From Candidatus Nomurabacteria bacterium (GTDB lineage: Bacteria > Patescibacteriota > Minisyncoccia > Phycocordibacterales > UBA9973), in the NCBI GenBank assembly GCA_052035195.1, contig JBPOHU010000001.1, positions 13,713 to 77,712 of the forward strand: 64,000 nucleotides of DNA, written 5' to 3'. Numbering within the stretch: the first letter of the stretch is position 1; each line of letters opens with the position of its first letter. The notes below the pieces were generated by a model that made no database searches, was not told where the DNA came from, and saw only the letters and a program-made list of their open reading frames with translations. Positions 16,771-34,410 of the stretch are shown one piece after another. Made by a program: the position numbers and the translations under genes.

Positions 16771-18639
16771 ATGATACATCCTAGTGATGGAGAACGAGTA
16801 ACTTATTTCGGCGAAACAAACTTTCGCAACCAACAAACGCGTTTTGGTATAAAAAACCGCGATCGTACTCGTCATATGTATGTGGTAGGAAAGTCTGGGG
16901 TAGGAAAGTCTACACTACTTGAAAATATGGCTATTCAAGACATTCAAAACGGAGAAGGGGTGGCCGTTCTAGATCCGCACGGTAGTTTTGCTGAGAAAAT
17001 GCTTGATTATATTCCTGAAGACCGTATTAAGGATGTGGTTTATTTTGCTCCTTTTGATATAGAAAATCCTATTTCTTTTAATATGCTTGAAGATATCGGA
17101 GAAGACAAGCGTCACTTTGTAGCTTCAGGATTGATGAGTACCTTCAAAAAGATTTGGGTAGACGCATGGAGTGCTCGTATGGAGTATATTCTTAACAATA
17201 TCTTGCTCGCTCTTTTAGAGTACCCAGATGCTACTTTGTTAGGAGTAAACCGAATGCTCTCGGATAAAGCTTTTAGAAAAAAAGTTGTTGAAAATATCAA
17301 AGACCCTTCAGTAAAAGCTTTTTGGACAGATGAATTTGAAAAGTACGGTGAGCGTTATATGCAAGAAGCTGGAGCAGCTATTCAAAATAAAATCGGTCAG
17401 TTTACTGCTAACCCTCTAGTTCGCAATATTATTGGTCAGCCTAAGTCTAGTTTTGATGTACGAGATATTATGGACAATAAGAAAATTCTTATTGTTAACC
17501 TTTCAAAAGGTCGTATTGGTGAACAAAATACAAGTCTCTTAGGTAGTATGATTATTACAAAGATTTATATTGCTGCTATGAGTCGCGCTGATGTTTCTCA
17601 TACTCGTATGGCAGAGCTTCCAAGTTTTTATTTTTATGTTGACGAATTCCAGTCTTTTGCCAACGAGTCCTTTGCTAATATTTTATCTGAGGCTCGTAAA
17701 TATAAACTCGCGCTTATCATTGCGCACCAATATATTGCTCAAATGGAGGAGTCAGTGCGCGATGCTGTTTTTGGAAACGTAGGAACAAGTGTATCTTTTA
17801 GAGTTGGACCACTGGACTCGGAGATGTTAGAGAAGGTATATGCACCACAGTTTACGTCAAACGATCTTGTAAATCTTGGTTTTGCGCAGATATATTTATC
17901 TTTGATGATTAACGATATGGGTTCTCAGCCTTTTTCTGCAAAAACCTTAGCTCCTATACCAAGACCATCTATTTCTTATAGAAATGATGTTATTGAGTGG
18001 ACCAGAGCTCACTTTGCTTTACCTAAAGACATAGTAGAGAAAAATATTAGAGATTGGTTTGGTGCTGGTAGCGAAGAATCTGGACAAAATAATTCCTATG
18101 AAAAGAAGCCGTATTTACAGAATCAAAAATCTTTTAGTCCAGAACAAAAGCCTTATCAAAAACCAACTACCTCTTTCCCAAAAAAGGAATACAAACCAGA
18201 GCAGAAGTTTACTAGTAGTGAGCCAAAAGTTCACATGCCTTTCAAAAAGGTTTTTGAAAAACCAATAGTTAAAGAAGAAACAAACAATATAAAACCAAGC
18301 GAAGAACTGTCGAAGCTTTTAGATGCTATTGATAATAGTCCCACAAAGACTAATGAAGCTCCTGTTGTACAAAAGGTTCCGAGGCCTCCATTTGTTGATG
18401 AAAAGCCTTTAACTCAAACTATAGCACCTGTTAAGCTCGCAGAAAGAGGTCCTACAGAATCTAGTCGCAACCTTCTCAAAGAAGCCTTAATGAAAGCTAC
18501 ATCAGGAACAAATATAAAAAATGAAGAAATAAAAACTCAAAAGACAGAAGATCCTATTTTAGAAAAAAAAGAAGATACTTCTGTAAACAATAATCCAAAA
18601 GAAATATCTCACAGCGAATTAAAAAAGATTTTAGAATAA
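16771..18639 (+). CDS. TraD/TrwB/VirD4-family (type IV coupling protein-like) P-loop ATPase with long Lys/Glu/Pro-rich C-terminal tail
   Basis: Walker A VVGKSGVGKSTLL followed by VLDPHG (matches the DPxG motif after the P-loop in T4CPs). Walker B FYFYVDEFQSF. IIAHQY motif. No N-terminal TM helices. About 190 aa of low-complexity C-terminus. Confidence 0.5.
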   Translation: MIHPSDGERVTYFGETNFRNQQTRFGIKNRDRTRHMYVVGKSGVGKSTLLENMAIQDIQNGEGVAVLDPHGSFAEKMLDYIPEDRIKDVVYFAPFDIENPISFNMLEDIGEDKRHFVASGLMSTFKKIWVDAWSARMEYILNNILLALLEYPDATLLGVNRMLSDKAFRKKVVENIKDPSVKAFWTDEFEKYGERYMQEAGAAIQNKIGQFTANPLVRNIIGQPKSSFDVRDIMDNKKILIVNLSKGRIGEQNTSLLGSMIITKIYIAAMSRADVSHTRMAELPSFYFYVDEFQSFANESFANILSEARKYKLALIIAHQYIAQMEESVRDAVFGNVGTSVSFRVGPLDSEMLEKVYAPQFTSNDLVNLGFAQIYLSLMINDMGSQPFSAKTLAPIPRPSISYRNDVIEWTRAHFALPKDIVEKNIRDWFGAGSEESGQNNSYEKKPYLQNQKSFSPEQKPYQKPTTSFPKKEYKPEQKFTSSEPKVHMPFKKVFEKPIVKEETNNIKPSEELSKLLDAIDNSPTKTNEAPVVQKVPRPPFVDEKPLTQTIAPVKLAERGPTESSRNLLKEALMKATSGTNIKNEEIKTQKTEDPILEKKEDTSVNNNPKEISHSELKKILE

Positions 18640-18653
18640 TTTTTTAAACCATC

Positions 18654-19997
18654 ATGTTTCGTGCCATAGCGCTATCTATCGCTATAGTTCTTGTTTCAGT
18701 AAGCATTTCTTACGCTAGTGTTCGTATCACTGAAATAGCATGGATGGGTAATACAGAGACTTCTTTTGGTGAATGGTTTGAGCTTTATAATGAGGGAGAT
18801 GAGAGTGTAGATCTTTCAGGTTGGAAGCTTTATGAAGATGGGGGAGAGCAAGTTGTTTTTACTCTTACAAAGAGTATTGACCCAAAAGGGTATTTAGTTG
18901 TTGAAAGAACAACCTCTACCAGTACAGATCCTGTTCCAGGTATAAGTGATGAATCAGGTACTTTTGGTGGCAGTGGATTTTCAAATACTGGTGAAAATTT
19001 AATTCTCAAAGATAAAGATGGTGTTTCTGTGCAGTCTTTAAATTTTATTTCTGGTTGGCCAGCAGGAAGTAGTGAGACCAAAGAAACAATGCAGTGGGAT
19101 GGAGCGTCTTGGGTAACAGCTAAATCTACACCAAAAGCCGGGCTTACTACTGATGTTGTTACTCCTGAACAGGTTGTAGCTTCGGGTGGTTCTGAATGGA
19201 TTCCTAAAAAAATAGAGCCAAGAATAGAGCTCTATATACCAAAGATAATTTATACAAAAGTAGCTTCAGAATATAATGCTGTAACTTTCTTAGATTATGA
19301 CAAAGCTTATTCAGGTGTTTTTCTTTGGAATATGGGTGATGGTACTACATACAGAAATACTTACCCTACAGAAATAAAACATACTTATAAATATCCTGGC
19401 ACTTATACTATCTCTTTTGCTTATTATAAAAATCCTTATGATAAAAAACCTTTTCTTTTAAACTTTTCTGAGCGTACAGTAGTAGAGCCTGTTGTTTCTC
19501 TAAGGATTATCAGTGATAAGGGGTTTGAATTTACAAATAGTAGTTCAAATACAGTTGATATCTCCGGATGGTTTGTTTTGCTCGAAGGAGTTTCAAATCC
19601 AAAAGATTCAATATTGGAAATCCCACCTATTACTTTTATTGCTCCTAATAAATCTATTATTATGCCATTTAGTTCTTTTGGATTATCAGAAGTTCCTAGT
19701 GGTGCCACCCTTCAAACTCCTGAGCGAAATAGTGTTACCGAAGAAACATCTTCTGTGGTAAAAAATCAAAATATTGTTGCCCCAAAGCAAAAAGTTATAG
19801 AAAATCAGTATCAAGATGAAATTGTTACAAAAAATAATTTTACAGCTAGCGTCACAACAGAAGGATTAGAAAATAAAGAAATTAGTGATAACCAAAAACA
19901 AAACAACACCAAGATTTTTATTTTTGGTGCTGTTTTACTAGGTGTTATTATTTTATTTTTGTTTGTAAATAGGTTTATTGTGTCGCGGGAAGAGTAG
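18654..19997 (+). CDS. Membrane-anchored protein with two lamin-tail-domain (LTD)-like modules
   Basis: Signal peptide. VRITEIAWMGN..GEWFELYNEGDESVDLSGWKL matches the LTD signature. A second, weaker copy (TNSSSNTVDISGWFVLLEG). C-terminal TM anchor IFIFGAVLLGVIILFLF. Confidence 0.6.
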   Translation: MFRAIALSIAIVLVSVSISYASVRITEIAWMGNTETSFGEWFELYNEGDESVDLSGWKLYEDGGEQVVFTLTKSIDPKGYLVVERTTSTSTDPVPGISDESGTFGGSGFSNTGENLILKDKDGVSVQSLNFISGWPAGSSETKETMQWDGASWVTAKSTPKAGLTTDVVTPEQVVASGGSEWIPKKIEPRIELYIPKIIYTKVASEYNAVTFLDYDKAYSGVFLWNMGDGTTYRNTYPTEIKHTYKYPGTYTISFAYYKNPYDKKPFLLNFSERTVVEPVVSLRIISDKGFEFTNSSSNTVDISGWFVLLEGVSNPKDSILEIPPITFIAPNKSIIMPFSSFGLSEVPSGATLQTPERNSVTEETSSVVKNQNIVAPKQKVIENQYQDEIVTKNNFTASVTTEGLENKEISDNQKQNNTKIFIFGAVLLGVIILFLFVNRFIVSREE

Positions 19998-20742
19998 TAG
20001 GTGGTACCTCAGGAGTAGTTTCAGTTGTATCTTCTACTGTGATATCTGTTTCTGTTACTAAATTTAAATCAGAGGTTAGTTGTTCTATTTCTTTAGATAT
20101 AATCTTATTTTCTTCAGCAGAAACCTTCTCTATAGTAGCATCGACTGCTTTTAATGCGTCACTTTGATCTTCTGTACTACCATCAACTATGTACTTCTGG
20201 ATATCTTCTTTTTGATTTTTAAGACTTTGTTCAAGTGTAGCAGTTACTTTTAGGGCCTCACTCGGCTCTGCGTCAGATAGAGTACCAAGCTCTTTAGAAA
20301 AATCTTTTATATGAGTATCTAGAGCTCTTTGAGCAGTCTCTTGTTTTGCTTTAGTAAGAGTTTTTGAAGCCGCCAAAGTCTTTATTTCACTTAATCGATT
20401 ATCAATACGAGTACTTTGCCATGAGAGTTTTTCTTCAGGAGTTGTTAAGAAGGCACCTTTAACTTCTTCGTTAACATTTATTTTGAAAGAGTATAGAGGG
20501 TCTCCCGGAAGAGAATTATCAGCTACAACAGAAACACTTCCTCCAACAAAGACAACAAATAGGAAAGTAGATAGACCTATTCTTAAGCCATGTTGTATCC
20601 CTCTGTGGAATATTGAAACAACAGGAGTTGATCGAGATATTTGAATATTTCTAGCAATAGAAGCACGAAGAATAGCACGCTCATCATTAGAGAGGTGTAT
20701 GTCTTTAAACATCTTTAATTGTTCGATTTTTTTCTCAATCAT
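19975..20742 (-). CDS. Putative anti-sigma factor / membrane protein with periplasmic coiled-coil domain
   Basis: Overlaps the stop of the upstream ECF sigma gene by 8 nt. Single TM helix (LSTFLFVVFVGGSVSVV), then a helical ectodomain. Confidence 0.4.
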   Translation of the reverse strand: MIEKKIEQLKMFKDIHLSNDERAILRASIARNIQISRSTPVVSIFHRGIQHGLRIGLSTFLFVVFVGGSVSVVADNSLPGDPLYSFKINVNEEVKGAFLTTPEEKLSWQSTRIDNRLSEIKTLAASKTLTKAKQETAQRALDTHIKDFSKELGTLSDAEPSEALKVTATLEQSLKNQKEDIQKYIVDGSTEDQSDALKAVDATIEKVSAEENKIISKEIEQLTSDLNLVTETDITVEDTTETTPEVPPTTLPATQ

Positions 20743-21253
20743 AAATTGTTTCGTTATAGCGACCTTTAAGTTTTTGGATAATTCTATGAATACGAACAGT
20801 CATAGCATTGACGCTTTTGCCGTATAAGCTCGCAATTTCTTCGATAGGTTTTTCTTCTGTGTATCTAAGGAAAATAATTTGCTTACTTTCTTCATCTAGC
20901 TCTTCGAGTAGCCCTTGAACCATTTTGATATCATCATTTCTGAATATTTCATCAGTATGAGTATTTGTTTCTGGGTCAAAACCATTTTCAAGTAGGGAGT
21001 CTAGAGAGGAACTTTTGCTCTTTTTGTAATAATCAATAACAGCATTTTTTGCTATTCGATAGACGAATGCTTGTTCGTGTAGCACCTCTCCTCCTTTGGC
21101 TAAATAGCCCCAAAGCCTTACAAAAGTGTCTTGGGTGATATCTAGGGCAATATGGCGAGAGCCAACACGAAAGAAAACAAAGCGAAATATCGCATCTTGA
21201 TATTCTTCAAATAGCTTGGAAAATAAGGCTTGTTGTTCGTTTTCGCGATTCAT
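20735..21253 (-). CDS. ECF-type RNA polymerase sigma-70 factor
   Basis: Region 2 (QDTFVRLWGYLAKG..AFVYRIAKNAVIDYY) and region 4 HTH (EIASLYGKSVNAMTVRIHRIIQKLK). Start taken at the internal ATG (MNRENEQ). Confidence 0.75.
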   Translation of the reverse strand: MNRENEQQALFSKLFEEYQDAIFRFVFFRVGSRHIALDITQDTFVRLWGYLAKGGEVLHEQAFVYRIAKNAVIDYYKKSKSSSLDSLLENGFDPETNTHTDEIFRNDDIKMVQGLLEELDEESKQIIFLRYTEEKPIEEIASLYGKSVNAMTVRIHRIIQKLKGRYNETIYD

Positions 21254-21346
21254 AGAACGATTCAATCTTAGTGACGAAGTAAAGCCACAGATATTACATA
21301 TTATACACAACATTTTGTTTTAAAGCATATTTGCTATAATAGCCCA

Positions 21347-23331: not shown

Positions 23332-23577
23332 ATGTCGGATATGTTTGGACTAAAAAAGATGCTCACAAATAAGCTGCTCGAAAGACAGCTCAAAAGTTTA
23401 CCAGAAGCTCAAAGAGAGGCTATTTTGAAAGCTGTTAATGAAAACCCTGATTTTTTTAATAAGTTAGCTAAGGAAATTGAGGCAGAAAAAAAGTCTGGTA
23501 AAAGTGAAATGGCTGCTTCTATGGAAGTCATGAGAAAGCATCAAGGAGAAATCCAAAAGATAATGATGGGTAAATAG
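23332..23577 (+). CDS. Small charged helical protein (81 aa), hypothetical
   Basis: ORF followed by a strong intrinsic terminator. Confidence 0.35.
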   Translation: MSDMFGLKKMLTNKLLERQLKSLPEAQREAILKAVNENPDFFNKLAKEIEAEKKSGKSEMAASMEVMRKHQGEIQKIMMGK

Positions 23578-23596
23578 TACTTTGTTTGTTCAAAAA

Positions 23597-23626
23597 AGCT
23601 ACATAAAAATTATGTAGCTTTTTTGT
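23597..23626 (+). terminator. Intrinsic terminator
   Basis: AGCTACATA-AAAAT-TATGTAGCT hairpin followed by TTTTTT. Confidence 0.55.
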
Positions 23627-23717
23627 TGCACTAATATTTGTATATAGTAAAATATAGTTGCAATATTTGCGTATGCTCAGCTCAAAATATACATTTACTT
23701 TTGTTTCTCGTAAAAAA

Positions 23718-24413
23718 ATGAAATCACTTAAACAAAAAAGTGATGTTTCTTCTACCAGGTCTCTTATTTCTGAGAAAAAGAATATTTCAGAAATCAAAAA
23801 TAGTGAATCAGATGTAGATGCAAATAGAAGAGCTTTTCTTAAAATAGCGGGATTAACAGGGCTTGGTGTTGCTGCAACTGCATTATTTCCAAAAAGTGCC
23901 AGTGCATATGTAACAGGTAGTACTCCAACCTCAAATGTTGTTGGTTCTAAAGACGCATCAAATAATCGTATAAATCCAGCGAAAGAAGATGGTAATCTTG
24001 CGACAATCGCAGGTAAAGACTTTGCAACCCAGACGACATTAGCAGCAATGAAGGCCAAGACAGACCTACTTACGTTTGATGGGAGTAACAACCTTCTAAC
24101 TGCTAGTAGTGGAGGTGCTTCAGTTGTTGGTATAAAAGATTCAAATGATGTTCGTATTAACCCTGCTCAAGACGACAGCGTTGTTTTACTTCGTCGCATG
24201 GTTAAGCTTATGGAGTCGCAAGCAGTTGTTGATAGTCAAATGCGACAAAGAGTTGTGGTTGATACTGGAGCAATTGTTGTATCTGGTTCTGTTACAGTGG
24301 CAACCATAACATCACTCAGTCAGCTTGCAGGTGTTGATTCTCGTTGGCAGATAATAGATTGGTCTAGACAAGCGTATAATAGTGGTATTCGTGGTAATTT
24401 GATTAATTCATAG
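23718..24413 (+). CDS. Predicted Tat-exported protein with internal 25-aa repeats
   Basis: Twin-arginine motif NRRAFLK, hydrophobic h-region IAGLTGLGVAATALF, and an AxA site (SASA-Y). The mature part is Gly/Ser/Thr/Val-rich with two repeats (VVGSKDASNNRINPAKEDG / VVGIKDSNDVRINPAQDD). Start chosen at ATG 23718. Confidence 0.6.
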   Translation: MKSLKQKSDVSSTRSLISEKKNISEIKNSESDVDANRRAFLKIAGLTGLGVAATALFPKSASAYVTGSTPTSNVVGSKDASNNRINPAKEDGNLATIAGKDFATQTTLAAMKAKTDLLTFDGSNNLLTASSGGASVVGIKDSNDVRINPAQDDSVVLLRRMVKLMESQAVVDSQMRQRVVVDTGAIVVSGSVTVATITSLSQLAGVDSRWQIIDWSRQAYNSGIRGNLINS

Positions 24414-24416
24414 TAT

Positions 24417-27296
24417 ATGGCAATTACAAATAATCTTAAAAAACAAGTTGATTTGCCTGTATGGGAATGGTGTAGATTTGCCCCAACAGCAACAACTGCT
24501 GTTTCTTCTATGACAACGGGTAATACTTTACAAAATCGATACTTGTATTATCAGGTTTCAAGTTTACTGTACAGGTATGATACACATGCAGATTCTTGGC
24601 ATCAACTTGCATCAGCTCCAGTTACGGCGCCGACTATCATGAATAACAATGTGATGACAAATTCTATTGGTCACTTTGGACAAGCAATATCTGGTGGTTT
24701 GAATACTATTCAAATGGCAGGACTTTCAGGTCAGGTGCTTGTGGGACAGAAGATTAGAATCATCGGCGGGACAGGAGCAGGTCAAGAAAAAACAATCACC
24801 GCTGTCTCCGCTCCTACATTTCATGAGCGTGGCATGGTAACAACAGCAAGTTCTACACAGGTTATCGATGCTTCAACAGGAGTCGGACTGAAATTATGGA
24901 AAAATAATCAATGGAAAAATTATCAGGTACGTATCGACTGGGGGACAGGAAGAACACAACTTCGAAACATTTTATACAATACACAGAACACACTCACATT
25001 TTCTGATGTAAACCATGTCACCATCAACCCGTGGGCAAACTGTCCACTCGCAGTTGCTACTGTTGCCAACTCTTCATTTTTTGTTATCGAAAGTCATCAG
25101 GTGACTGTAGATACTAACTGGTCAGTAATACCAGACGAGACCTCGAGCTTCATGATTTTATCTGGTGGTATTTGGAATGTGACTCAAGGTACCACGTCTG
25201 CACCATTCTTTTCATTCGCATATTACGACAGGCTTGCAGATGTTTGGTATCAAAAATCTACTCAGTCTGGTCTCAAAACTGCAGTGTTCCTAGCGGGTTC
25301 GGATTTGCAAATGGAGCGCATGACGGAAAATGGTGGTGCAATTTTTACTGAGACAGCATCAGGTGGAGGTGCACGGTATATTACCGCTACCGCAGTATTA
25401 ACCCCGATGGCGTTTGCAAACTTTGAAATTCGAATTGTGGCAGGGACTGGTGTGGGGCAATCGCTTTCAATCCTCAGTAATACAGCGACACGGATCAACG
25501 TGACTCAAGACTGGGATACAAATCCAGATGCTACTTCTGTGTATGAAATATGGAGAGACGTAGGAAAGATATGGCTTATTGGTGGAAACGACGCAGGTAT
25601 GCTTCAGTATTCACAAGACACAGATCAGTGGTCAACAGGTAAACAACTCGATAATGGTCAATGTAATCAGCTTGCTGCAAAAAAGAGTGGAGACAATCCT
25701 ATTGCAATAACTTCGATTACACGCTCACCCGCAGGTATTACAGTGTTAAATTCTACTCCTATTGCAGGAGGAAGTGCGTATAATATTAATGATATACTTA
25801 CGATTACTACCGGTGGTACCGGAGGAACTGCACGAGTTACAGCAGTTTCGAGTACTGGCGCTGTAACAGCGGTTAGCCTCGAAACAGTAGGTACCAACTA
25901 CACAACAGGCACAGGAAAAGCAACAACTGTAGTTCCAACAGGAGGTACTGGATGTACTCTCGATATTACCTCAATTGATTTTATTGAAACAGCGGTGACT
26001 CCGATTGCTCATAATTATAAAATAGGGGACACTGTCACTATCACTGGGGCGACGGGAACTGGGGCATCAAAATTTAATGGAACATACACAGTCACTGGTA
26101 TTCCAACTCCTACAACCAACCTTTCTTTCACATATTGTTCTGTAGGAGATCCTGGTGCTGCTACAGCAACTATTGGAGCATCACCGTCTACTACTCAACT
26201 TGTAGATTGTACTAAGAACTGGGTAGTTAATGAGCATGTAGGAAAGATCGTACAACTATCAACCAATGCAATCTTGTCAGTAGGACAGGCTAGAAGAATT
26301 GTTTCCAATACTGCTACAACACTTGTCTGGACGCTCGCTGCAACTGCACCTGTAAACGGTACAACAAAATACATAATAGAAGATATTAAACCATTTGGTA
26401 CCGATAGAATGTCTAAAGGAGAAACTACAGGGACAGAAGGTTTTGCCACATCAGGATCTACGACAACCATTGTCGATACATCAAAAAACTGGGAGACAAA
26501 TTACTGGTCACGAACAGTTAATAGAAAAGTCAGAATTGTAGAGGGAACAGGAGTTGGTGCTGAAATTGCAATTACTTCTAATACTTCAAACACGCTCACT
26601 TTTGCTGCTCAATCATTTACGGTAGATACTACAACTCGATATATAATAATGGATACTTTTGGCACAGCAACAAGTGGCACAACAACAACCCTAGTTGATT
26701 CTGGTCAGAACTGGGAAACTAACTATTGGGTAGGAAGTCGTGTTCGCTTCTTGTCTGGAACAGGGCAAGGTAATGAATACGCTATTACAGCTAATACCTC
26801 AACTACACTGACATTTGCCACAGGTACTGCCCCTGATACTTCAACTGCTTATGCAATTCTCGAAGCTACACCAAAAGCAAACGGTATACATCTTGACTGT
26901 ATTACAGGGTCAACTGATACTACTCTAAATAGTAACTACATGTATGCTTGGACAGGAACAGCAACTTCAGAACTTTCTCGCTATAATATTCATACTGAAC
27001 ACTGGGAAACTTTGTCATACTTTCCTCAGACGGAAACCATGACAACGGGTGCCATGTATGTGTACGACGGAGAAGATAGAATATATTATATTCAAGGTAT
27101 TACTACTCTTGCAAAATTAATGTACTATGATCTAGTGAAAAACATCGTTGTTCCAGCTTCTCAGCCACCATATGGTATGGGAGCTGCTGTGTCTGGGAAC
27201 CGTATTGAGATAGTTGAGACTGAAGATGGATTAAAATACCTGTACCTCATGAGACATTCTGGTACTGAGATATGGAGGACATTATTATATTGGTAG
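24417..27296 (+). CDS. Large (959 aa) Thr/Gly-rich protein with about six copies of a roughly 65-aa repeat; no signal peptide
   Basis: Starts 4 nt after the stop of the upstream Tat-signal gene. Repeat pattern TTLVDxxxNWETNYWxGxxVRxxxGTGxGxEYAITxNTSTTLTF. Kelch-like strands near the C-terminus (MYVYDGEDRIYYIQG). Confidence 0.5.
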   Translation: MAITNNLKKQVDLPVWEWCRFAPTATTAVSSMTTGNTLQNRYLYYQVSSLLYRYDTHADSWHQLASAPVTAPTIMNNNVMTNSIGHFGQAISGGLNTIQMAGLSGQVLVGQKIRIIGGTGAGQEKTITAVSAPTFHERGMVTTASSTQVIDASTGVGLKLWKNNQWKNYQVRIDWGTGRTQLRNILYNTQNTLTFSDVNHVTINPWANCPLAVATVANSSFFVIESHQVTVDTNWSVIPDETSSFMILSGGIWNVTQGTTSAPFFSFAYYDRLADVWYQKSTQSGLKTAVFLAGSDLQMERMTENGGAIFTETASGGGARYITATAVLTPMAFANFEIRIVAGTGVGQSLSILSNTATRINVTQDWDTNPDATSVYEIWRDVGKIWLIGGNDAGMLQYSQDTDQWSTGKQLDNGQCNQLAAKKSGDNPIAITSITRSPAGITVLNSTPIAGGSAYNINDILTITTGGTGGTARVTAVSSTGAVTAVSLETVGTNYTTGTGKATTVVPTGGTGCTLDITSIDFIETAVTPIAHNYKIGDTVTITGATGTGASKFNGTYTVTGIPTPTTNLSFTYCSVGDPGAATATIGASPSTTQLVDCTKNWVVNEHVGKIVQLSTNAILSVGQARRIVSNTATTLVWTLAATAPVNGTTKYIIEDIKPFGTDRMSKGETTGTEGFATSGSTTTIVDTSKNWETNYWSRTVNRKVRIVEGTGVGAEIAITSNTSNTLTFAAQSFTVDTTTRYIIMDTFGTATSGTTTTLVDSGQNWETNYWVGSRVRFLSGTGQGNEYAITANTSTTLTFATGTAPDTSTAYAILEATPKANGIHLDCITGSTDTTLNSNYMYAWTGTATSELSRYNIHTEHWETLSYFPQTETMTTGAMYVYDGEDRIYYIQGITTLAKLMYYDLVKNIVVPASQPPYGMGAAVSGNRIEIVETEDGLKYLYLMRHSGTEIWRTLLYW

Positions 27297-27302
27297 AATT
27301 AT

Positions 27303-28166
27303 ATGGACATAAATTATCTTATACAATTACTAGGGAATAGATTAAATGGATTAAATCTTGCAAAAGATCAAGCTTTTTCATCTGGAGATTTGGAGAGGAT
27401 AAACACAATAGATGCTGAAATTTTGGAAGTTAAAAATACTATTTCTAAACTAAATTTAGTAGCAAGTATTGAACAAACTGCCGCAGCTACACCTTTTACG
27501 GAGGCTCAGGTTGTACAAAATGGCATTGAAGCATCTTTTAATCCAACAGTTATTACAGATGCAACAAAATGTTTGCTTGAATATGATATTACTCCTTATG
27601 CTACAGATCCAATGCACGAATTAAAAATACAAAATATCCTTGAAAAGATGGGGTTAATGGATTCTCCAGATAAGGTAGATTTTTATATAAAGAAAACAAG
27701 TCCGGATAGTCCATTAGATGGTCTTATGGTATGGAATGCTTCAACTCAGTATTTAGTGGATGTTCGTCTTATGCTCGCACTGATGGAGCTTGATTCTCGT
27801 TTTGGAACTCTTGGCCTAGCAACAAGTACTTTTAATCCAGGTAACGTAGGTAATGATGGTGTAAATACAAAAACATATGATTCTTGGAATGATGGTGTAT
27901 TAGCAGTAGCAATGTGGTTAAATACACATAGAAAAAATAATTTAACTAATACCGACACTATTGATGTTATTCCTGCTCCACAACAAGAGCCTGTACAAAT
28001 TATAGAACCTGTGAATGTTGAAGTTCCAAAAGATACTAATCCTATAGTAGAAGCAGCCCCAGATGAACAAAAAGAAATAATACCTGAAATAGTCCCTGAT
28101 ATAGCCCCCACTCCTCCTGAAACTACTATATCAGAACCGAACACAGAGGTATTAGTAGGAGAGTAA
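27303..28166 (+). CDS. Hypothetical protein with weak lysozyme-like motif and Pro/Glu-rich tail
   Basis: Central segment LMLALMELDSRFGTLGLATSTFNPGNVGN loosely resembles the Glu-Ser..FNP catalytic region of SLT/lysozyme-like folds. C-terminus is low-complexity (PEIVPDIAPTPPETT). Confidence 0.3.
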   Translation: MDINYLIQLLGNRLNGLNLAKDQAFSSGDLERINTIDAEILEVKNTISKLNLVASIEQTAAATPFTEAQVVQNGIEASFNPTVITDATKCLLEYDITPYATDPMHELKIQNILEKMGLMDSPDKVDFYIKKTSPDSPLDGLMVWNASTQYLVDVRLMLALMELDSRFGTLGLATSTFNPGNVGNDGVNTKTYDSWNDGVLAVAMWLNTHRKNNLTNTDTIDVIPAPQQEPVQIIEPVNVEVPKDTNPIVEAAPDEQKEIIPEIVPDIAPTPPETTISEPNTEVLVGE

Positions 28167-28187
28167 AGTTCTTAGTTAGTTTATATC

Positions 28188-28916
28188 GTGAATACACTTC
28201 AAGAAGCAATCACAAAATACTCTCATTATTTTGAGGGTTTTCGTCGCAAGCTGGTTCTCCTGGTAAAGATTTTTGCTATTGTTTTTGTAATAGCATTTTT
28301 AAACGCTGGTCCTGTTATAAAAGTTTTGCTTAAGTACTTAACTATGAAAGGCGTTACTGTCGTTACTACTTCACCATTTCAACTAGTTGAGGTGGCTATG
28401 AGTATTGCTTTTTTCTTGGCTTGCGTAGTAATTATACCTATTTGTATTTATTATTTGTATTTATTTTTAAAACCAGCTCTTTTTAAAAAAGAACAGAGAC
28501 TTTTTTTGTTTTCATTGCCACTAGCTTTACTTTTATTCGCATTAGGTTTTTTATACAGTGTTATTATGCTTTATTACGCTGTTAGATTAATCGCTACGGT
28601 TAATGTAGCTTTGGGGGTTGCTAATTATTGGGATATAAGTACTTTTATTTATCAAATAGTCTTAACTTCAACACTTTTGGGCTTATTATTTATGTTTCCT
28701 TTGGTTATAACACTCTTAATAAAGATGGGGGCAACAACTGTTAGTTTTTTACGGTCTAAACGTAGGCATGCAATCGCTGTAATCTTTGTAATAGTCTCTT
28801 TACTTCCCCCAACCGATGGTTTATCATTAATATTAATGGCGGTGCCGTTGGTGTTAATTTATGAGATCACGGTCTTAATAAACAGAAAAAAACCGGGTCG
28901 TTTATTAGTAAACTAA
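28188..28916 (+). CDS. tatC: Sec-independent protein translocase TatC
   Basis: 242 aa with six predicted TM helices. N-terminal HYFEGFRRKLVLLV matches the TatC HLxELRxRLL start. Size and hydropathy are typical. Confidence 0.75.
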   Translation: MNTLQEAITKYSHYFEGFRRKLVLLVKIFAIVFVIAFLNAGPVIKVLLKYLTMKGVTVVTTSPFQLVEVAMSIAFFLACVVIIPICIYYLYLFLKPALFKKEQRLFLFSLPLALLLFALGFLYSVIMLYYAVRLIATVNVALGVANYWDISTFIYQIVLTSTLLGLLFMFPLVITLLIKMGATTVSFLRSKRRHAIAVIFVIVSLLPPTDGLSLILMAVPLVLIYEITVLINRKKPGRLLVN

Positions 28917-28931
28917 ATAGTGTATTCACCT

Positions 28932-29084
28932 ATGTTTGGATTAGGAACAAAAGAAATTATAATTATTGTTGTTGTCATTGTTTTACTTTTTGGATCAAAG
29001 AAGATTCCAGAACTTACAAAAAGTATCGCTGATGCAGTTCGCCACTTGTTTGGAGCTTTTAAAGACGCTGACACTAAAAAGTAG
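28932..29084 (+). CDS. tatA: Sec-independent translocase TatA/E (50 aa); not in ORF track
   Basis: MFGLGTKEIIIIVVVIVLLFGSKKIPELTKSIADAVRHLFGAFKDADTKK: N-terminal TM helix, FG-hinge and amphipathic helix typical of TatA. Confidence 0.7.
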   Translation: MFGLGTKEIIIIVVVIVLLFGSKKIPELTKSIADAVRHLFGAFKDADTKK

Positions 29085-29126
29085 TATCAAGCGTTTGTTT
29101 ATTATTTATATTTAGATAACATAATC

Positions 29127-29300
29127 ATGTTTGGATTAGGAACAAAAGAAATTATAATTATTGCGGTTGTCCTTATTTTGCTTTTTGGATCAAAGAAGAT
29201 TCCAGAACTCGCAAAGAATCTTGTTGAGGCTTTTAAAAATCTTACCGGTATTTTTAAGAGTTCAGAATCAAGTGCTTCTGAAAAAAATAATAAAAAATAG
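29127..29300 (+). CDS. tatA: Second TatA/E paralogue (57 aa); not in ORF track
   Basis: MFGLGTKEIIIIAVVLILLFGSKKIPELAKNLVEAFKNL.. has the same architecture. Tandem duplicate with a diverged C-terminus. Confidence 0.7.
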   Translation: MFGLGTKEIIIIAVVLILLFGSKKIPELAKNLVEAFKNLTGIFKSSESSASEKNNKK

Positions 29301-29361
29301 CCTTTTAGCTACTTTTTAGTAATTCTATGCTTAGCATAGTATTACTTTTTACAATATCTGT

Positions 29362-31794
29362 GTGAAAAGTAATCATTTTAAAAATACACCAATAATCAAG
29401 ACTGTTACCCTTAGCATTTTATTGTTCGGAGCTTTTTTTGCAACGAATGTCTTCGCAACTGACACTTATATCCCAGGTGAAAGTATAGTTATTGGCGAGT
29501 TTATCTACAATGATGACTATACCCCAACTACTGATGACTGTACGATATCAGTGTATTCACCAGCGGGCGTTTCTCTTGTTAGTGAGGTGACAATGACAGA
29601 TGATGCTACTGGTTGGCATAGTTATTCTTACGGCACTCCTTTAGTAGAAGGGAAATACCCTACATTTATTACATGTGGCTCGCTTATAGGAGGCGACCTT
29701 CTAAAACTAGACAAATCTTTCATACTTAAAGCTCCGGTTGTTACTGATGCCTCTATTGCCTCATCTGTTTGGAGTAGTGCCTCTAGAACTCTGACATCTT
29801 TCGGTTCTCTTGTTTCTGATATATGGAGCTATAGCACTAGAACACTCTCATCTTTTGGAACACTTGCTTCAGATATTTGGAATGATACCTTTGCTCCAAC
29901 TCGAACACTTACAAGTAAAAATATAGCCGGAGGAGGATCTTTCGCAACAGAGAGTTATATTGATGCCTCACAATCAACAATTGTTACAGAAATCCAAACA
30001 AATAGAACTCTTATAAATGCCCTTAATAACATATCAGCTGCAGACGTTTGGACTTATGGAACTCGATCAACAAACTCTGGTAGTGTAAGTATAAATAATG
30101 CTTCAGTTGATGCAATTTGGGACAAGGCTTCTTCTAGTCTTACAACAACAGGTAGTGTAGGTAAATTAATTGTCGACAACCTTGATGCTCAAGTTTCAAC
30201 AAGGGGAACAAGTACTCTTACAGCGGGAGATGTATGGGCATCTGCAACAAGAACTCTTTCTTCTAGCGGGGTAGACGCTGTTTCTGCGGGTGTATGGGCT
30301 AATGCTGGGCGAACTCTTACTAGTTATGGTAATGACATAACTGCCGCTGATGTATGGAATACATTATCTTCATCACTTACTACTGTAGGGTCTATAGGTG
30401 AACAATTAGCAACAAATTCTGATGCTAAAACATCAGATGTAATCACAGCTATTGGAGCACTAAATAATATATCAGCCACAGATGTTTGGACTGCTGGTAC
30501 TAGAACTCTTACCTCTGGTGTAGATATTTCAAATTCTTCAATTTCTGCTATTTGGGATAAAGCAACATCTTCTCTTTCTACTTCCGGTAGTATAGGTAAA
30601 CTTGTTGTCGACAATCTCGATGCTCAAGTTTCAAGTCGAGGAACAGGTAACAGTAGCCTAACTGCTGCTGACGTTTGGTCATCAGCAACCCGAACACTTT
30701 CTGATTATTCTACTTCTGCTGTTGCTACGGCTGTGTGGGCAAATGCCACAAGGACTCTAACAAGTTATGGTAATGATATTACTGCCGCTGATGTTTGGAA
30801 TGTACTTTCGTCAACATTAACTACAGTAGGATCTATCGGAGAACAGGTTAAAACAAATCTTGATGCACCGGTATCTGCTATTGGTGGCTCAACAAACTGG
30901 TCTGTAAAGATGAGTAATGTTGAAAGAGTACAAACAGGTTATACATATAGAACAAAGGTTTTTATTTTGGATTCTAGTGCATCTCCGACTGCTCCTTTTG
31001 CTACACCTACTGTGACTCTCTACGATGTAGATCGTAATGTAGTAGTTTCAAATGTGTCTATGAACCTAATAAGCACAGGTGTTTATGAGTATACATATTT
31101 AGTAAATAACTCTGCAGCACAAGGACTATGGGAAGCAGTTATTTCTTCACAAGTAGAAAGTGGTAAAACAATACAAACGAATGATTATTTTGAAATAGCT
31201 GGGTCTCCAGCTCAGGTGCTTATCAATTCGGTTAATGCAACTAGTCCGTCATCAATTAGTGCAAATGTAACGATAACAAATGAAGGCTTAACTGGTTATG
31301 AATACCAGTATGAGTGGTGTATTGTCTCAAATTTAAATAACGATTGTGGGGGTAACGATGATGCTTATTATGCTTCAGCAGCTAAGTATATAAATCCTGC
31401 TGAGGACTGGAATACAGTTCTCACTGGGTCAGTTACAAATGCTGGAACATATTATTTCAAACTCGTTGTATATTTCGGTACTGAGAGTTCAGGGTCTTCT
31501 AGAGTCTTCACTGTAAATGCCTCTAATACTGGAGGCGGGGGTGGTGGAGGAGGCGGTGGCGGAGGCGGAGGAGGTAACACTCCACCATCTCCTGTAACAG
31601 AAAACAAGTCTTGCAATGGTGCAGATTTTAATAAAAATGGAGTAGTAGACTCCACTGATTTCTCAATATTGTTATATTATTGGAAGACCTCACCGCCTTT
31701 TAAAAACCCTTGTGTTGACATAAACTTGGATAAAAAAGTTGATTCAATAGATTTTTCAATTATGCTCTTCCAGTGGGGTAAAAAACCATTATAA
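29362..31794 (+). CDS. Secreted repeat protein with C-terminal poly-Gly linker and dockerin domain
   Basis: Signal peptide. More than 15 copies of an (A/S)xDVW/IWxxxxRTLTSxG repeat. Gly15 tract. C-terminal pair of Ca-binding dockerin segments DFNKNGVVDSTDFSILL and DINLDKKVDSIDFSIML. Confidence 0.6.
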   Translation: MKSNHFKNTPIIKTVTLSILLFGAFFATNVFATDTYIPGESIVIGEFIYNDDYTPTTDDCTISVYSPAGVSLVSEVTMTDDATGWHSYSYGTPLVEGKYPTFITCGSLIGGDLLKLDKSFILKAPVVTDASIASSVWSSASRTLTSFGSLVSDIWSYSTRTLSSFGTLASDIWNDTFAPTRTLTSKNIAGGGSFATESYIDASQSTIVTEIQTNRTLINALNNISAADVWTYGTRSTNSGSVSINNASVDAIWDKASSSLTTTGSVGKLIVDNLDAQVSTRGTSTLTAGDVWASATRTLSSSGVDAVSAGVWANAGRTLTSYGNDITAADVWNTLSSSLTTVGSIGEQLATNSDAKTSDVITAIGALNNISATDVWTAGTRTLTSGVDISNSSISAIWDKATSSLSTSGSIGKLVVDNLDAQVSSRGTGNSSLTAADVWSSATRTLSDYSTSAVATAVWANATRTLTSYGNDITAADVWNVLSSTLTTVGSIGEQVKTNLDAPVSAIGGSTNWSVKMSNVERVQTGYTYRTKVFILDSSASPTAPFATPTVTLYDVDRNVVVSNVSMNLISTGVYEYTYLVNNSAAQGLWEAVISSQVESGKTIQTNDYFEIAGSPAQVLINSVNATSPSSISANVTITNEGLTGYEYQYEWCIVSNLNNDCGGNDDAYYASAAKYINPAEDWNTVLTGSVTNAGTYYFKLVVYFGTESSGSSRVFTVNASNTGGGGGGGGGGGGGGGNTPPSPVTENKSCNGADFNKNGVVDSTDFSILLYYWKTSPPFKNPCVDINLDKKVDSIDFSIMLFQWGKKPL
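31531..31575 (+). repeat. GGN codon repeat encoding a 15-residue poly-glycine linker
   Basis: ggaggcgggggtggtggaggaggcggtggcggaggcggaggaggt. Confidence 0.7.
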
Positions 31795-31805
31795 AATATA
31801 AAAAA

Positions 31806-32714
31806 ATGAAATACCAAAATTTTTTCCCAGCCTTTATTCTATTTTTAACAACTTTTTTGTTTGTTGTTATTTTATTACCTCAAAGTAGTTACGCCGCTTA
31901 CATTAATGCTTCTGCTGAAAGTAGTATTTCTGCTGGAGATATTAGTATTATAAATATCTATTTAAATACTGAAGGCCAAGAAATCAACTCTCTCGAAGGA
32001 ACGATATCACTTTCAGACAATCGTGATAGTAATTTTGAGGTTAAAGACATTTCTCTTGTTAATTCAGTATTTAGTATGTGGCCACGCAAACCTTCTTTAA
32101 CCACGGGGCATAATATTACGTTTATCGGCGGGGTACCTGGTGGTGTAAAAGGTGACAGACTTTTAATCTTCTCAGCTTTTGTAAAAATAAATAGTCCAGG
32201 TAGTTTTGTTATAAGTCCAAGAGTAATCACTGCTTATAAAAATGATGGTTTAGCAACGGCTATTTCAATCACCAAAGACATTTCAACTATTAATGTTAGT
32301 TCTGCGGGTTCTTCACAAAAGAACGCTTTAGAGGAAGTTATTTCAAACGATAACATAGCCCCAGACCCTTTTAATGTAAGCCTTATAAAAGACCCAAACC
32401 TTTATGACAATAAAAAGTTTATTAATTTTGAAACAAATGATGGGCAATCAGGAATAAGTCATTATGAAGTAAGAGAGGGGAGTTACCCAGCTGTTAGAAG
32501 TGGTACTTCTTATATTCTTGTTGATCAAAACAAAAAAGCTAATGTCGTTGTTACTGCATATGATAAGGCTGGAAATTTTCAAGTTGTTAGCTTCAAAGAA
32601 AAACAACCTATTCGCTGGTTAACTGTCTTTACTTCTGTCATAATTATATTAGTAATAAATAAAATAGTTAAAAATAAAATTAAAAGAAGAAGCAATGCAA
32701 AAATACTGCAATAG
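31806..32714 (+). CDS. Membrane-anchored cohesin-like domain protein (signal peptide, cohesin-like beta-sandwich, Ig-like domain, C-terminal TM)
   Basis: Cohesin-like pattern SAGDISIINIYLNTEGQEINSLEGTISLSDN..FEVKDISLVNSVF..GDRLLIFSAFVKINSPGSF. Ig-like domain ending VVVTAYDKAGNFQVV. C-terminal TM plus basic tail. Confidence 0.5.
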   Translation: MKYQNFFPAFILFLTTFLFVVILLPQSSYAAYINASAESSISAGDISIINIYLNTEGQEINSLEGTISLSDNRDSNFEVKDISLVNSVFSMWPRKPSLTTGHNITFIGGVPGGVKGDRLLIFSAFVKINSPGSFVISPRVITAYKNDGLATAISITKDISTINVSSAGSSQKNALEEVISNDNIAPDPFNVSLIKDPNLYDNKKFINFETNDGQSGISHYEVREGSYPAVRSGTSYILVDQNKKANVVVTAYDKAGNFQVVSFKEKQPIRWLTVFTSVIIILVINKIVKNKIKRRSNAKILQ

Positions 32715-34410
32715 TTTAAGTTTTCTAAAAAGAATATCTGTTCTGATATTTATTTTTTGTATTTTATTGCCTATAAATAAAGTTGAGGCTGCTACTCTTT
32801 CTTTTTCTCCGAGCTCTACAACTGTTTCTGAAGGAAATATTGTTTCAATAAAAGTTGTAACAAATACTCTCGGCAAGTCAGTTAATAATGCAGAAGCTAC
32901 AATACAGTTTCCAACTGATTTACTCGAGGTTGTATCTGTTAATAAGAGCAATTCAATTTTTTCTTTGTGGGTGGAAGAACCTAAATTTTCTAACGCAGCA
33001 GGTACAGTATCGTTTAATGGTGGAGTTTCAAACCCAGGGTATACAGGTAGTAACGGCACGCTTGCTACTATTACCTTTAAAGCAAAGAAATCAGGCGTAG
33101 CCACCGTACTTTTTGCTGATGCAGCTGTCAGAGAAAACGATGGGCTAGGTACTGACATTATCTCTGGTAGGGGTACAAGTGTGATTCAGATTGGTAATCC
33201 AAAAGAAACTGAAACTCCAACTCCTGCCACTCCTACAACTACTACAAAATCTGTTAAGCCTATTGTGACTTCTGATACACATCCAGACCAAAACACATGG
33301 TATTCAAATAGCACCGCGTCTTTCAATTGGAAAACTCCTTCTGGTGTTAATTCTGTTCAAGCTTTTACAAACAGAATTCCAGAATCAGTTCCGACCACTA
33401 CTTATGATAGCTCTGTTACCCAAAAAACACTGACAGAACTTCCTGACGGCACTTTTTATTTCCATATTAGATATTCCGGCTCAAATGGTTGGGGTCCTAT
33501 AACTCACTACAAAATAAAAGTTGATACCAAGGCCCCAGAGGCTTTCACACCAACAATTAAAACCGTTGGCAATCAAAGTATTATTGAATTAAAAGCTGAA
33601 GACTTAACTTCTGGTATAGATTATTACACTCTAAAAATAGATGAAGGTGATATTTTAAACATCAAAAAAGACGATTTAATAAATTCTGAGTACATTCTCC
33701 CTGTTCTAGCTCAAGGAGATCATGTTGTAACTGTTGTAGCTTATGATAAAGCAGGTAACCATACAGAAGCTACCACAAACTTTACTAGCTCTTTTATTAC
33801 CCCTCCTTCAATATCTCTAAGTTCTTCAGAAGTTAAAAAAGGAGATCCAGTAATTATTTTTGGTAAAAGTGATTATCCAAACAAACAAGTTGAAATAATT
33901 TTTGAACTATCTGGAATACAAATCAAAAAATACATAGGAACAACTTCTGATGACGGCTCTTTCTCAGTAACTGTCGAAAATGTTAGAAAAGTTGGACTTA
34001 TAAAAGTATCAGCAAAAAATATTTTATCTGATTCAGTAAAAAGCCAAGCTTCTGAAAGTCTAGATTTGAGAGTTCTCAAGAGTGATTTTGCCAAAGTCAC
34101 AGTGACATTATTCTGGGTAGTTTTGGCAGTCGCCTTATTAGTACTATTGTTGATAGTTTTGTACATTGGTTGGTACAAGTTCTTGTCACTCAAAAAGAAA
34201 AATAAATCAAAATTACAAAATGCAATAGAAGATGCCCATAGAGCAGTGGTTCTTTTGAAAGAGGAGCTAAATGATCAGCTTGCAGAACTCGAAAAGGTTC
34301 GTGTTGATAGAGAATTAAATAAAAATGAAGAAATGGTATTTAAAGAAATTCAAAAAAATGTAGATGACGTAGATAAGTTTATTGAAAAGAAACTCAAAAA
34401 GTTACTTTAG
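32695..34410 (+). CDS. Membrane-anchored cohesin-like domain protein, second paralogue, with Ig-like domains and cytoplasmic coiled-coil tail
   Basis: N-terminal signal/TM. Cohesin-like VSEGNIVSIKVVTNTLGKSVNNAEATIQFPTDLLEVVSV..GTLATITFKAKKSGVATVLF. Thr/Pro linker. Ig-like domain ending VVTVVAYDKAGNHTEA. TM helix LFWVVLAVALLVLLLIVLYIGWY and a charged coiled-coil C-terminus. Confidence 0.5.
   Translation: MQKYCNSLSFLKRISVLIFIFCILLPINKVEAATLSFSPSSTTVSEGNIVSIKVVTNTLGKSVNNAEATIQFPTDLLEVVSVNKSNSIFSLWVEEPKFSNAAGTVSFNGGVSNPGYTGSNGTLATITFKAKKSGVATVLFADAAVRENDGLGTDIISGRGTSVIQIGNPKETETPTPATPTTTTKSVKPIVTSDTHPDQNTWYSNSTASFNWKTPSGVNSVQAFTNRIPESVPTTTYDSSVTQKTLTELPDGTFYFHIRYSGSNGWGPITHYKIKVDTKAPEAFTPTIKTVGNQSIIELKAEDLTSGIDYYTLKIDEGDILNIKKDDLINSEYILPVLAQGDHVVTVVAYDKAGNHTEATTNFTSSFITPPSISLSSSEVKKGDPVIIFGKSDYPNKQVEIIFELSGIQIKKYIGTTSDDGSFSVTVENVRKVGLIKVSAKNILSDSVKSQASESLDLRVLKSDFAKVTVTLFWVVLAVALLVLLLIVLYIGWYKFLSLKKKNKSKLQNAIEDAHRAVVLLKEELNDQLAELEKVRVDRELNKNEEMVFKEIQKNVDDVDKFIEKKLKKLL

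Follow-up and report, generated by a model that had tools for sequence, protein, structure and literature searches.

Why should bacteria of the candidate phyla radiation (CPR) keep a twin-arginine translocation (Tat) system? The usual rationale for Tat is the export of cofactor-loaded redox enzymes. CPR bacteria, to our knowledge, have almost none of these, and we know of no work that addresses why they retain the system. The question is posed by a locus in a 64-kb stretch of a Candidatus Nomurabacteria bacterium genome (contig JBPOHU010000001.1, positions 13,713 to 77,712; AT-rich, with a GC content of about 36%; hereafter, the window), in which tatC and two tatA genes lie within a run of nine same-strand genes. 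The run extends from 23673 to 34410, with successive gaps of 3, 6, 21, 3, 42, 61, 11 and -20 nt, and its largest product, a protein of 959 amino acids (aa), has its closest genome match in a Candidatus Paceibacterota metagenome-assembled genome (MAG; 97% protein identity). The reading that we favour, and hold with moderate confidence, is that a minimal TatA/TatC translocase is reserved for a phage-derived module, which folds first and is then exported by means of a small, signal-bearing adapter protein. The nine genes are as follows.

23673-24413, + strand: Tat-signal adapter gene, 246 aa (from the open reading frame (ORF) list, ortholog alignment and phage homology)
24417-27296, + strand: 959-aa cargo protein, 102.9 kDa, without a signal peptide; a six-bladed Kelch-type beta-propeller
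27303-28166, + strand: 287-aa protein, 31.5 kDa, without a signal peptide
28188-28916, + strand: tatC, 242 aa (PF00902 and structure alignment)
28920-29084, + strand: tatA copy 1 (PF02416), with a likely true start at ATG 28932 that gives 50 aa
29127-29300, + strand: tatA copy 2, 57 aa (PF02416)
29362-31794, + strand: g810, with a Sec-type signal, W..(S/T)R(T/S)LT repeats, an MG2-like domain and a C-terminal dockerin
31806-32714, + strand: g302, with a signal peptide and a C-terminal transmembrane anchor; conserved partner of g810 and g571
32695-34410, + strand: g571, with a signal peptide, Ig-like repeats, a C-terminal transmembrane anchor and a cytoplasmic coiled-coil tail

An original prediction, made from the sequence letters, had described a five-gene unit here. 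Every ORF that it named is present where it was placed and all five genes belong to the unit, but the true unit runs on downstream to 34410 through g810, g302 and g571. These three surface-protein genes, the relationship with phages and the modular build of the adapter had all been missed.

Conserved linkage across CPR genomes

We examined the linkage between the Tat genes and their proposed substrates from both sides. The set anchored on the Kelch gene has 17 loci (L001-L004 and L006-L017 are cellular; L005 is from a phage), and its MAGs are labelled Yonathbacteria, Nomurabacteria, Taylorbacteria, Paceibacteria, Saccharibacteria and WWE3. In all 16 cellular loci with flanks, tat genes adjoin the Kelch gene (L008 shows only tatA), and the linkage persists in rearranged loci as well as in loci in which the tat genes are divergently oriented. 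The conserved unit comprises the adapter, the large protein, the third protein, tatC, tatA (in one to four copies), g810, g302 and, as its last gene, g571; this eight-gene order is kept across several CPR classes with different flanks. The locus at 23673-34410 is a chromosomal operon that is widespread in CPR bacteria. A scan of the operon for promoter and terminator consensus sequences gave counts no higher than those in shuffled sequence.

The reverse test used 80 metagenomic loci anchored on a CPR-type TatC (41-72% identity). tatA adjoins tatC in 71 of 75 TatC-anchored loci, the adapter is found in 22 of the 27 that have at least 5 kb upstream, and module genes occur in 40 of the 42 with at least 5 kb of flank, the two unlinked cases being L074 and L087. 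Most of the loci that seem to lack an adapter have a second cargo family, in many cases with two or three paralogs in a row, and the adapter gene therefore lies beyond the available flank. L066 has no adapter or cargo gene upstream of tatC, yet carries g810 downstream. The linkage of Tat genes to these substrates in related genomes, on which the original prediction depended, is thus conserved in both directions.

g810 follows tatA in most loci and is present in 35 of the 42 TatC-anchored loci where the flank allows, and g810, g302 and g571 are linked to tatC more constantly than is the Kelch cargo. The Ig-like repeats of g571 are of the Big_13 or Lap-adhesin-like kind. Cohesin-like N-domains in g302 and g571, to go with the dockerin of g810, were considered and found no support in Pfam (12 orthologs each) or in PDB profile searches.

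A Tat signal on a small adapter protein

The first gene of the operon encodes a protein with the following parts.

23673-23714, + strand: N-terminal motif MLSSKYTFTFVSRK, kept in orthologs
23673-23906, + strand: signal region, 78 aa
23823-23843, + strand: NRRAFLK motif
23844-23891, + strand: h-region, rich in Gly, Ala and Thr
23898-23906, + strand: ASA of the cleavage site (ASA followed by Y); the cut would fall after 23906
23907-24164, + strand: conserved stalk with YVTGSTPTSNVVG..RINPA repeats
about 24165-24410, + strand: cargo-specific C-domain

The original prediction began this gene at 23718. The true start is ATG 23673, 15 codons upstream, which yields the MLSSKYTFTFVSRK sequence that is conserved in orthologs (the motif common to their extreme N termini is ML.S.[YH]SF.L[VI]S.K). 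Relative to this N terminus, the Tat signal that had been proposed is borne out: a long polar n-region is followed by N-R-R-A-F-L-K, which agrees with the consensus S/T-R-R-x-F-L-K, then by the h-region, a c-region with Pro-Lys and A-S-A before Y. Among 120 adapter homologs from the database, 119 have [K/R]R-x-F-[L/M]-K (90 with KR and 29 with RR) and all 119 retain the second Arg. In at least 101 of the 120, A-x-A stands directly before a near-invariant mature N terminus (GSTPTSNVVG.K), at least 84 of these have Lys or Arg in the c-region, and A-x-A lies a median of 77 aa from Met1. Conservation of the motif in 119 of 120 homologs, and of A-x-A in at least 101, establishes that NRRAFLK does not occur here by chance.

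The Sec signals encoded in these loci served as a control: set against them, the adapter h-region is weakly hydrophobic (1.93 in its best 12-residue window, compared with 2.57 for g810 and 2.87 for g571), and it comes with a basic c-region and A-x-A; the basic c-region would be a feature of the Sec-avoidance type. As the A-x-A site is near-invariant, the window's adapter is probably cleaved rather than anchored. A scan found no other credible Tat-type signal within the 64-kb window.

The family defined by the N-terminal half of the adapter has 292 clusters (50% identity) at E ≤ 1e-3 and 101 at E ≤ 1e-10. Its stalk repeat (..INPA[TK]E[DE]..L..) also recurs 7-10 times in proteins of 340-912 aa without the signal part (P0243, P0264, P0351 and P0366), and these may be fibre-like proteins built of the same repeat.

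The signal and the stalk are constant in all cellular loci, and the C-domain comes in four or more types, which change along with the family of the large protein encoded downstream. The commonest alternative cargo is a family of 710-950 aa (alignment A5), which has no match in Pfam. Members occur on 29 viral contigs without tat genes, on one of them beside a collagen-like tail fibre gene. The cargo cassettes are exchangeable, with a second, unrelated family that is shared with phages filling the same slot elsewhere. Remote homology between the A5 family and the Kelch cargo family was considered and rejected (hhalign probability of 0.3%). Upstream of tatC, the A5 cargo is often present in two or three paralogous copies in tandem (L036, L052, L073, L076, L181, L184, L193 and L196), and the family is found in phages too; this suggests that cargo diversifies by duplication.

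A minimal TatA/TatC translocase

The predicted tatC matches PF00902 (E = 8.2e-34; 117.7 bits against a cut-off of 25.1) and both predicted tatA genes match PF02416 (E = 7e-11, 41.7 bits, and E = 8e-12, 44.7 bits, against a cut-off of 21). The first TatA probably starts at ATG 28932 (MFGLGTKE..., 50 aa) and not at GTG 28920; the called ortholog in L001 starts likewise. Against TIGR00945, TatC scores 101 bits, under the equivalog cut-off of 132.7; it aligns over its full length to the TatC structures of Escherichia coli and Aquifex (E about 1e-17). With the signal conserved, the tatC and tatA hidden Markov models (HMMs) passed and the linkage kept, none of the three findings that the original prediction had named in advance as grounds for abandoning it was made.

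In the E. coli TatBC-signal structure, H12, E15, F94, Y100 and E103 bind the RR-x-F motif; the contact of the first Arg with E15 is water-mediated only, and the second Arg forms a salt bridge with E103 (PMC13323110). H12, E15, F94 and E103 correspond to H13, E16, F93 and E102 of the window protein, and Y100 is replaced by F99. Among 13 CPR TatC orthologs, E102 is invariant and F93 is at least 90% conserved. The pattern in the adapter family, with Lys or Arg at the first position and Arg fixed at the second, fits these contacts (PMC13323110). We saw no separate paralog of TatB length, and the translocase is a complete minimal TatA/TatC system. The copy number of tatA ranges from 1 to 4 across otherwise similar loci (L030, L034, L051, L053, L070, L098 and others).

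Cargo proteins and their relatives in phages

The original prediction described the 959-aa product as a Thr- and Gly-rich repeat protein without a signal peptide of its own. It does lack a signal, but it is not a low-complexity repeat or fibre protein: it has a six-bladed propeller fold, and its compact, all-beta structure is that of a Kelch propeller into which beta domains are inserted; these carry four [IV]R[IF]..GTG.G motifs. The propeller resembles lectins and sialidases in structure. Neither this protein nor the 287-aa protein, nor the orthologs of either, has a hydrophobic N-terminal segment. The 287-aa protein has two recognizable modules, followed by a variable C-terminal tail that is rich in Pro, Glu and Thr.

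27303-27467, + strand: N-terminal helical module of about 55 aa, homologous to the small gene after the Kelch gene in phages
about 27585-27938, + strand: GH73/lysozyme-like domain, with Asp164 at the position of the catalytic Glu

A lysozyme-like segment had been foreseen in this protein, and the domain is GH73-like: PF01832 is matched by 12 of 12 orthologs at E ≤ 0.05 (best E = 3.7e-9), and the window protein scores 25.0 bits, below the gathering score of 30.2. The catalytic residue is another matter, as an invariant Asp164-Ser165 (ELDS/QNDS) stands where the catalytic Glu of the MltC motif aligns; by our reading of the GH73 motif, Asp164 aligns with the catalytic Glu of that family too. Because of this Asp, the activity of the domain is uncertain, and it may only bind glycan. 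Identity as an SLT-type lytic transglycosylase was rejected, given that the match to the MltC motif is marginal (E = 0.03) and GH73 fits better.

Searches of PHROGs and Pfam returned nothing significant for the adapter or the Kelch protein. Homologs of the cargo module are found in phage tail modules and virions. The phage locus L005 has a Kelch homolog (47% identity) beside baseplate-wedge-like and collagen-like tail-fibre genes, and no tat genes. In BFVD, an uncultured Caudovirales phage provides a homolog over the full length (42% identity, TM-score 0.92). In the cultured siphovirus Pseudanabaena phage Pam2, ORF66 is a Kelch homolog (36.5% identity over 85% of the query) with genes for a distal tail protein, a collagen-like protein and a minor tail subunit as its neighbours, and both ORF65 and ORF66 are marked as 'identified by mass spectrometry' in virions (PMC9382816 Table S2). 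A profile of the adapter C-domain built from CPR orthologs matches Pam2 ORF65 (E = 5e-20) and the small protein of L005 (E = 5e-23), and a profile of the same kind for the first ~55 residues of the 287-aa protein matches Pam2 ORF67 (E = 4e-5), a 53-aa gene immediately 3' of ORF66.

The same arrangement recurs among 77 Kelch loci from IMG/VR. The adapter C-domain lies directly upstream of Kelch in 68, never with an RR or KR signal (seven of the nine loci without it end at a contig edge), and a gene of about 55 aa lies directly downstream in 49; tatC, tatA, g810 and g571 occur in none of the 77. The phage cassette, as judged from these gene orders, consists of the adapter C-domain, the Kelch protein and the 55-aa protein. 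The cellular version is set apart consistently by three things: the Tat signal and stalk of the first gene, the GH73 domain and tail of the third, and the presence alongside of the tat genes and g810, g302 and g571. Phage hallmarks were found in L005, L103 and L179; L103 has a large terminase on the same contig as a Kelch homolog with 60% identity.

A 1042-aa subtype of the Kelch protein shows 57-71% identity between viral contigs from IMG/VR (L099-L103 and L108) and cellular CPR loci (L003), which indicates recent gene flow between CPR bacteria and phages that probably infect CPR cells. Pam2 ORF66 (L018, 8986-11613) is labelled 'flagellar hook-length control protein FliK' in GenBank. The label stems from a BLAST match to a mis-annotated CPR protein ('Parcubacteria bacterium C7867-004'); identity of the Kelch family as FliK is unsupported by fold and family searches and is a propagating misannotation.

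A proposed export mechanism and its alternatives

We propose that the adapter C-domain would bind the Kelch protein, and probably the third protein too, in the cytoplasm, as presumably happens in phage assembly. The complex would then cross TatAC on the adapter's signal, by the hitchhiker route used by E. coli PaoABC, and signal peptidase would cleave after A-x-A and free the conserved N-terminal stalk. The stalk might dock the module on the cell surface, possibly (and this is speculation) on the co-encoded, Sec-exported g810, g302 and g571 proteins. Once there, the module would attach to another cell or to that cell's wall, where the GH73-like domain would bind peptidoglycan or act on it; this role is made plausible by the phage ancestry, the lectin- and sialidase-like propeller, the GH73-like domain and the episymbiotic lifestyle of CPR bacteria. 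The predicted sizes (17.7 + 102.9 kDa, with or without a further 31.5 kDa) sum to 120.6 kDa for a 1:1 complex and 152.1 kDa for a 1:1:1 complex; Tat cargo of up to about 150 kDa has been reported (PMC6708511).

Co-export of the large protein as a hitchhiker, which the original prediction had raised, is strengthened, although we still infer it: the partners never bear a signal, the C-domain varies in step with the cargo, 3-6 nt separate the genes and the size fits Tat. Of its 'dedicated Tat-dependent surface/fibre module', the dedicated surface module finds good support in the comparisons, and the fibre gives way to a propeller. A bolder version, which we put forward tentatively and hold to be possible but short of probable, is a surface organelle made of domesticated phage tail-tip cassettes, exported through Tat adapters and anchored by Sec-dependent proteins, that mediates attachment to a host or attack on its wall and whose cargo is still swapped with phages. 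In that version the interchangeable cargo would fold in the cytoplasm, as when a phage is built, cross by a translocase that has essentially no other task, and be plugged by way of the stalk into an anchor made of g810, g302 and g571.

Several observations weigh against these proposals. The Tat-signal HMM TIGR01409 gives the adapter 14.1 bits (E = 0.046), below the cut-off of 16.7; the n-region is unusually long (RR at residue 52), which may contribute to the low score, and KR outnumbers RR by about 3:1 among the homologs. AF2 models the adapter monomer poorly (pLDDT 59, pTM 0.21). Some orthologous cargo proteins reach about 1680 aa and, with an adapter, would be larger than any documented Tat cargo. 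Kelch is the most conserved gene of the cluster (78-81% identity, compared with 41-56% for TatC and 39-43% for g810), a degree of conservation not usually seen in an adhesin or receptor-binding protein; recent spread by phages, or a ligand under constraint, may be the reason. Our sample represents the TatC clade most like that of the window, and other CPR Tat systems may behave differently. The sharing with phages is read here without a direction of transfer, and both the binding of adapter to Kelch and the export of either protein are what we infer from comparing sequences. There is also a split variant (L003, L014 and L008), in which the adapter paired with Kelch is signal-less and a different, polytopic protein carries the RR motif. 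In L003 (11154-11960, - strand) and L014 (13252-14082, - strand) these polytopic proteins have about four transmembrane segments, an internal RRKFIK, an h-region, the stalk motif and a distinct C-domain. They may be adapters inserted by Sec and Tat together, and their internal RRKFIK and h-region resemble the Sec-then-Tat insertion of actinobacterial Rieske proteins.

The lack of an export signal on the Kelch and GH73-like proteins, and on the Kelch adapter of the split variant, could mean that the adapter alone is a Tat substrate, with its partners staying in the cytoplasm or leaving by lysis or another secretion system, and with gene adjacency reflecting co-regulation or an inherited phage cassette rather than co-export. 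A cargo of about 1680 aa that seems too large for Tat, and a degree of Kelch conservation more typical of an intracellular protein, would also be explained. We nonetheless consider this unlikely: the homologs are virion proteins that act outside cells, each C-domain invariably accompanies its own cargo family, in phages as in cells, the gene spacing is tight enough for translational coupling, the wall-directed GH73-like domain has no obvious cytoplasmic role, and the only consistent differences between the cellular and phage versions are the added signal and tat genes. It is highly improbable that K/R-R-x-F-L-K is instead a Sec-type signal or an uncleaved signal anchor, and that the tat genes serve substrates elsewhere in the genome. 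In nearly every homolog the basic pair is followed by F-L-K, the h-region is weakly hydrophobic when set beside Sec signals from these loci, the c-region carries basic residues, tatC adjoins the adapter family in 40 of 42 loci, and the Arg that salt-bridges E103 is kept in 119 of 119 motif-bearing homologs, whereas the first Arg makes only a water-mediated contact. Such a signal would, on the other hand, account for KR in place of RR in 90 of the 119 and for the subthreshold TIGR01409 score, and the substrate scan covered 64 kb of the genome only.

Both cargo families occur in phages, with up to 60-71% identity to the cellular copies and therefore with recent exchange with phages that probably infect CPR cells, and this raises the question of whether the operon is what remains of a decayed prophage or tailocin, or serves as a decoy or for superinfection exclusion by presenting a receptor-binding protein of phages. 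We judge this to be quite improbable. Genes for a capsid, terminase, tube, sheath or integrase are absent from the operon and its vicinity, and its neighbours in the window are ordinary chromosomal genes (UvrA/B/C, YchF, RelA/SpoT, TopA, SerRS and three tRNAs), for which reason the prophage reading of the window was rejected. An eight-gene order kept across several CPR classes with different flanks further implies a long-standing cellular function.

Surroundings of the operon

The original prediction took in an 81-aa gene at 23332-23577, which lies outside the system. An AT-rich hairpin with a T-run (AAAAAAGCTACATAAAAATTATGTAGCTTTTTT; at about 23593-23626, 3' of the gene, a visual observation only) separates it from the cluster, and it is not syntenic in other genomes; these two observations indicate that it is probably a separate transcription unit. 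Its product is helical, and the only sign of synteny with the cluster elsewhere is a weak match in L006.

The flanks also contain a pair of genes for an extracytoplasmic function (ECF) sigma factor and its anti-sigma factor, and an NDH-2-like oxidoreductase. The pair (19975-21313, - strand) encodes an ECF-type sigma factor and a DUF5667 protein, the putative anti-sigma factor; the NDH-2-like and methyltransferase genes, which immediately precede the operon, are read from the other strand. Further genes in the vicinity that may act at the surface or in host interaction encode a VirD4/TraG-like coupling ATPase (16771-18639), then a protein with a Lamin-tail domain and PKD (18654-19997), and, farther upstream, a 1033-aa product that combines four K319L-like PKD domains with a GDSL lipase domain (8077-11178).

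Comparison with known systems

Tat itself, operons that pair Tat with a dedicated cargo and hitchhiking are already known. The original prediction regarded a complete Tat system wired to one substrate pair as unusual for a small, reduced genome, but there is a precedent in Bacillus subtilis phoD-tatAdCd, a translocase of TatA and TatC only that is encoded with, and serves, a single cargo (PMC6708511). The operon described here is similar in placing such a translocase in the operon of its cargo, one translocase per cargo system. PhoD is a single cofactor-binding enzyme with its own signal, whereas here the signal is on a small modular adapter and the bulky partners are signal-less; unlike in phoD-tatAdCd, the cargo is related to phages and the unit includes three Sec-type surface proteins.

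For the export route that we propose, the nearest precedent is E. coli PaoABC, a 135-kDa ternary hitchhiker complex in which the 21-kDa PaoA, with its signal, escorts signal-less subunits of 34 and 78 kDa (PMC4273604). As in PaoABC and HybOC, a small signal-bearing subunit (17.7 kDa) is encoded with signal-less partners (31.5 and 102.9 kDa) that it would carry along. PaoABC differs in being a redox enzyme, for which the insertion of cofactors in the cytoplasm explains the use of Tat. No cofactor is evident here, and the rationale for Tat would be folding and assembly in the cytoplasm, inherited from phage morphogenesis. Membrane anchors can also be inserted by Tat, among them tail-anchored Tat substrates (PMC10924467). 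Unlike such anchors (Rieske-type, dual Sec/Tat), the window's adapter has the near-invariant A-x-A and is probably cleaved. A further likeness is to the tail-module cassette of Pam2 (ORF65-ORF66-ORF67) and of many uncultured Caudoviricetes, where homologs of the adapter C-domain, of Kelch and of the ~55-aa module (53-55 aa) come in the same order. The phage copies, unlike the cellular ones, have no Tat signal or stalk, GH73 fusion or tat genes, and sit beside collagen-like fibre and baseplate genes.

A survey of freshwater CPR bacteria records TatA and TatC merely as present (PMC9166423), and a paper on the genetics of Patescibacteria makes no mention of Tat (PMC10633639). We found no description of the cluster in the open-access literature on Tat in CPR, Patescibacteria or Saccharibacteria, or on Kelch proteins or tail fibres in CPR. 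What is new is a phage tail-module cargo without an evident cofactor, a modular signal adapter with phage-shared cassettes, and the conservation of the whole unit across the CPR.

Implications

The operon is a natural adapter-plus-cargo system in which the size limits of Tat and signals of the KR type can be probed, and it documents ongoing exchange of genes between CPR cells and phages; the comparison also corrects the 'FliK' misannotation of the Kelch family. Were the surface organelle that we tentatively suggest to prove real, the Tat hitchhiker route would extend to cargo without cofactors, at or above the known size limit. How these episymbionts attach is poorly understood, and the operon provides candidates for the proteins that interact with the host. 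It also offers a testable answer to the question of why CPR bacteria keep Tat: in this clade, the system would export a phage-derived, pre-folded module.

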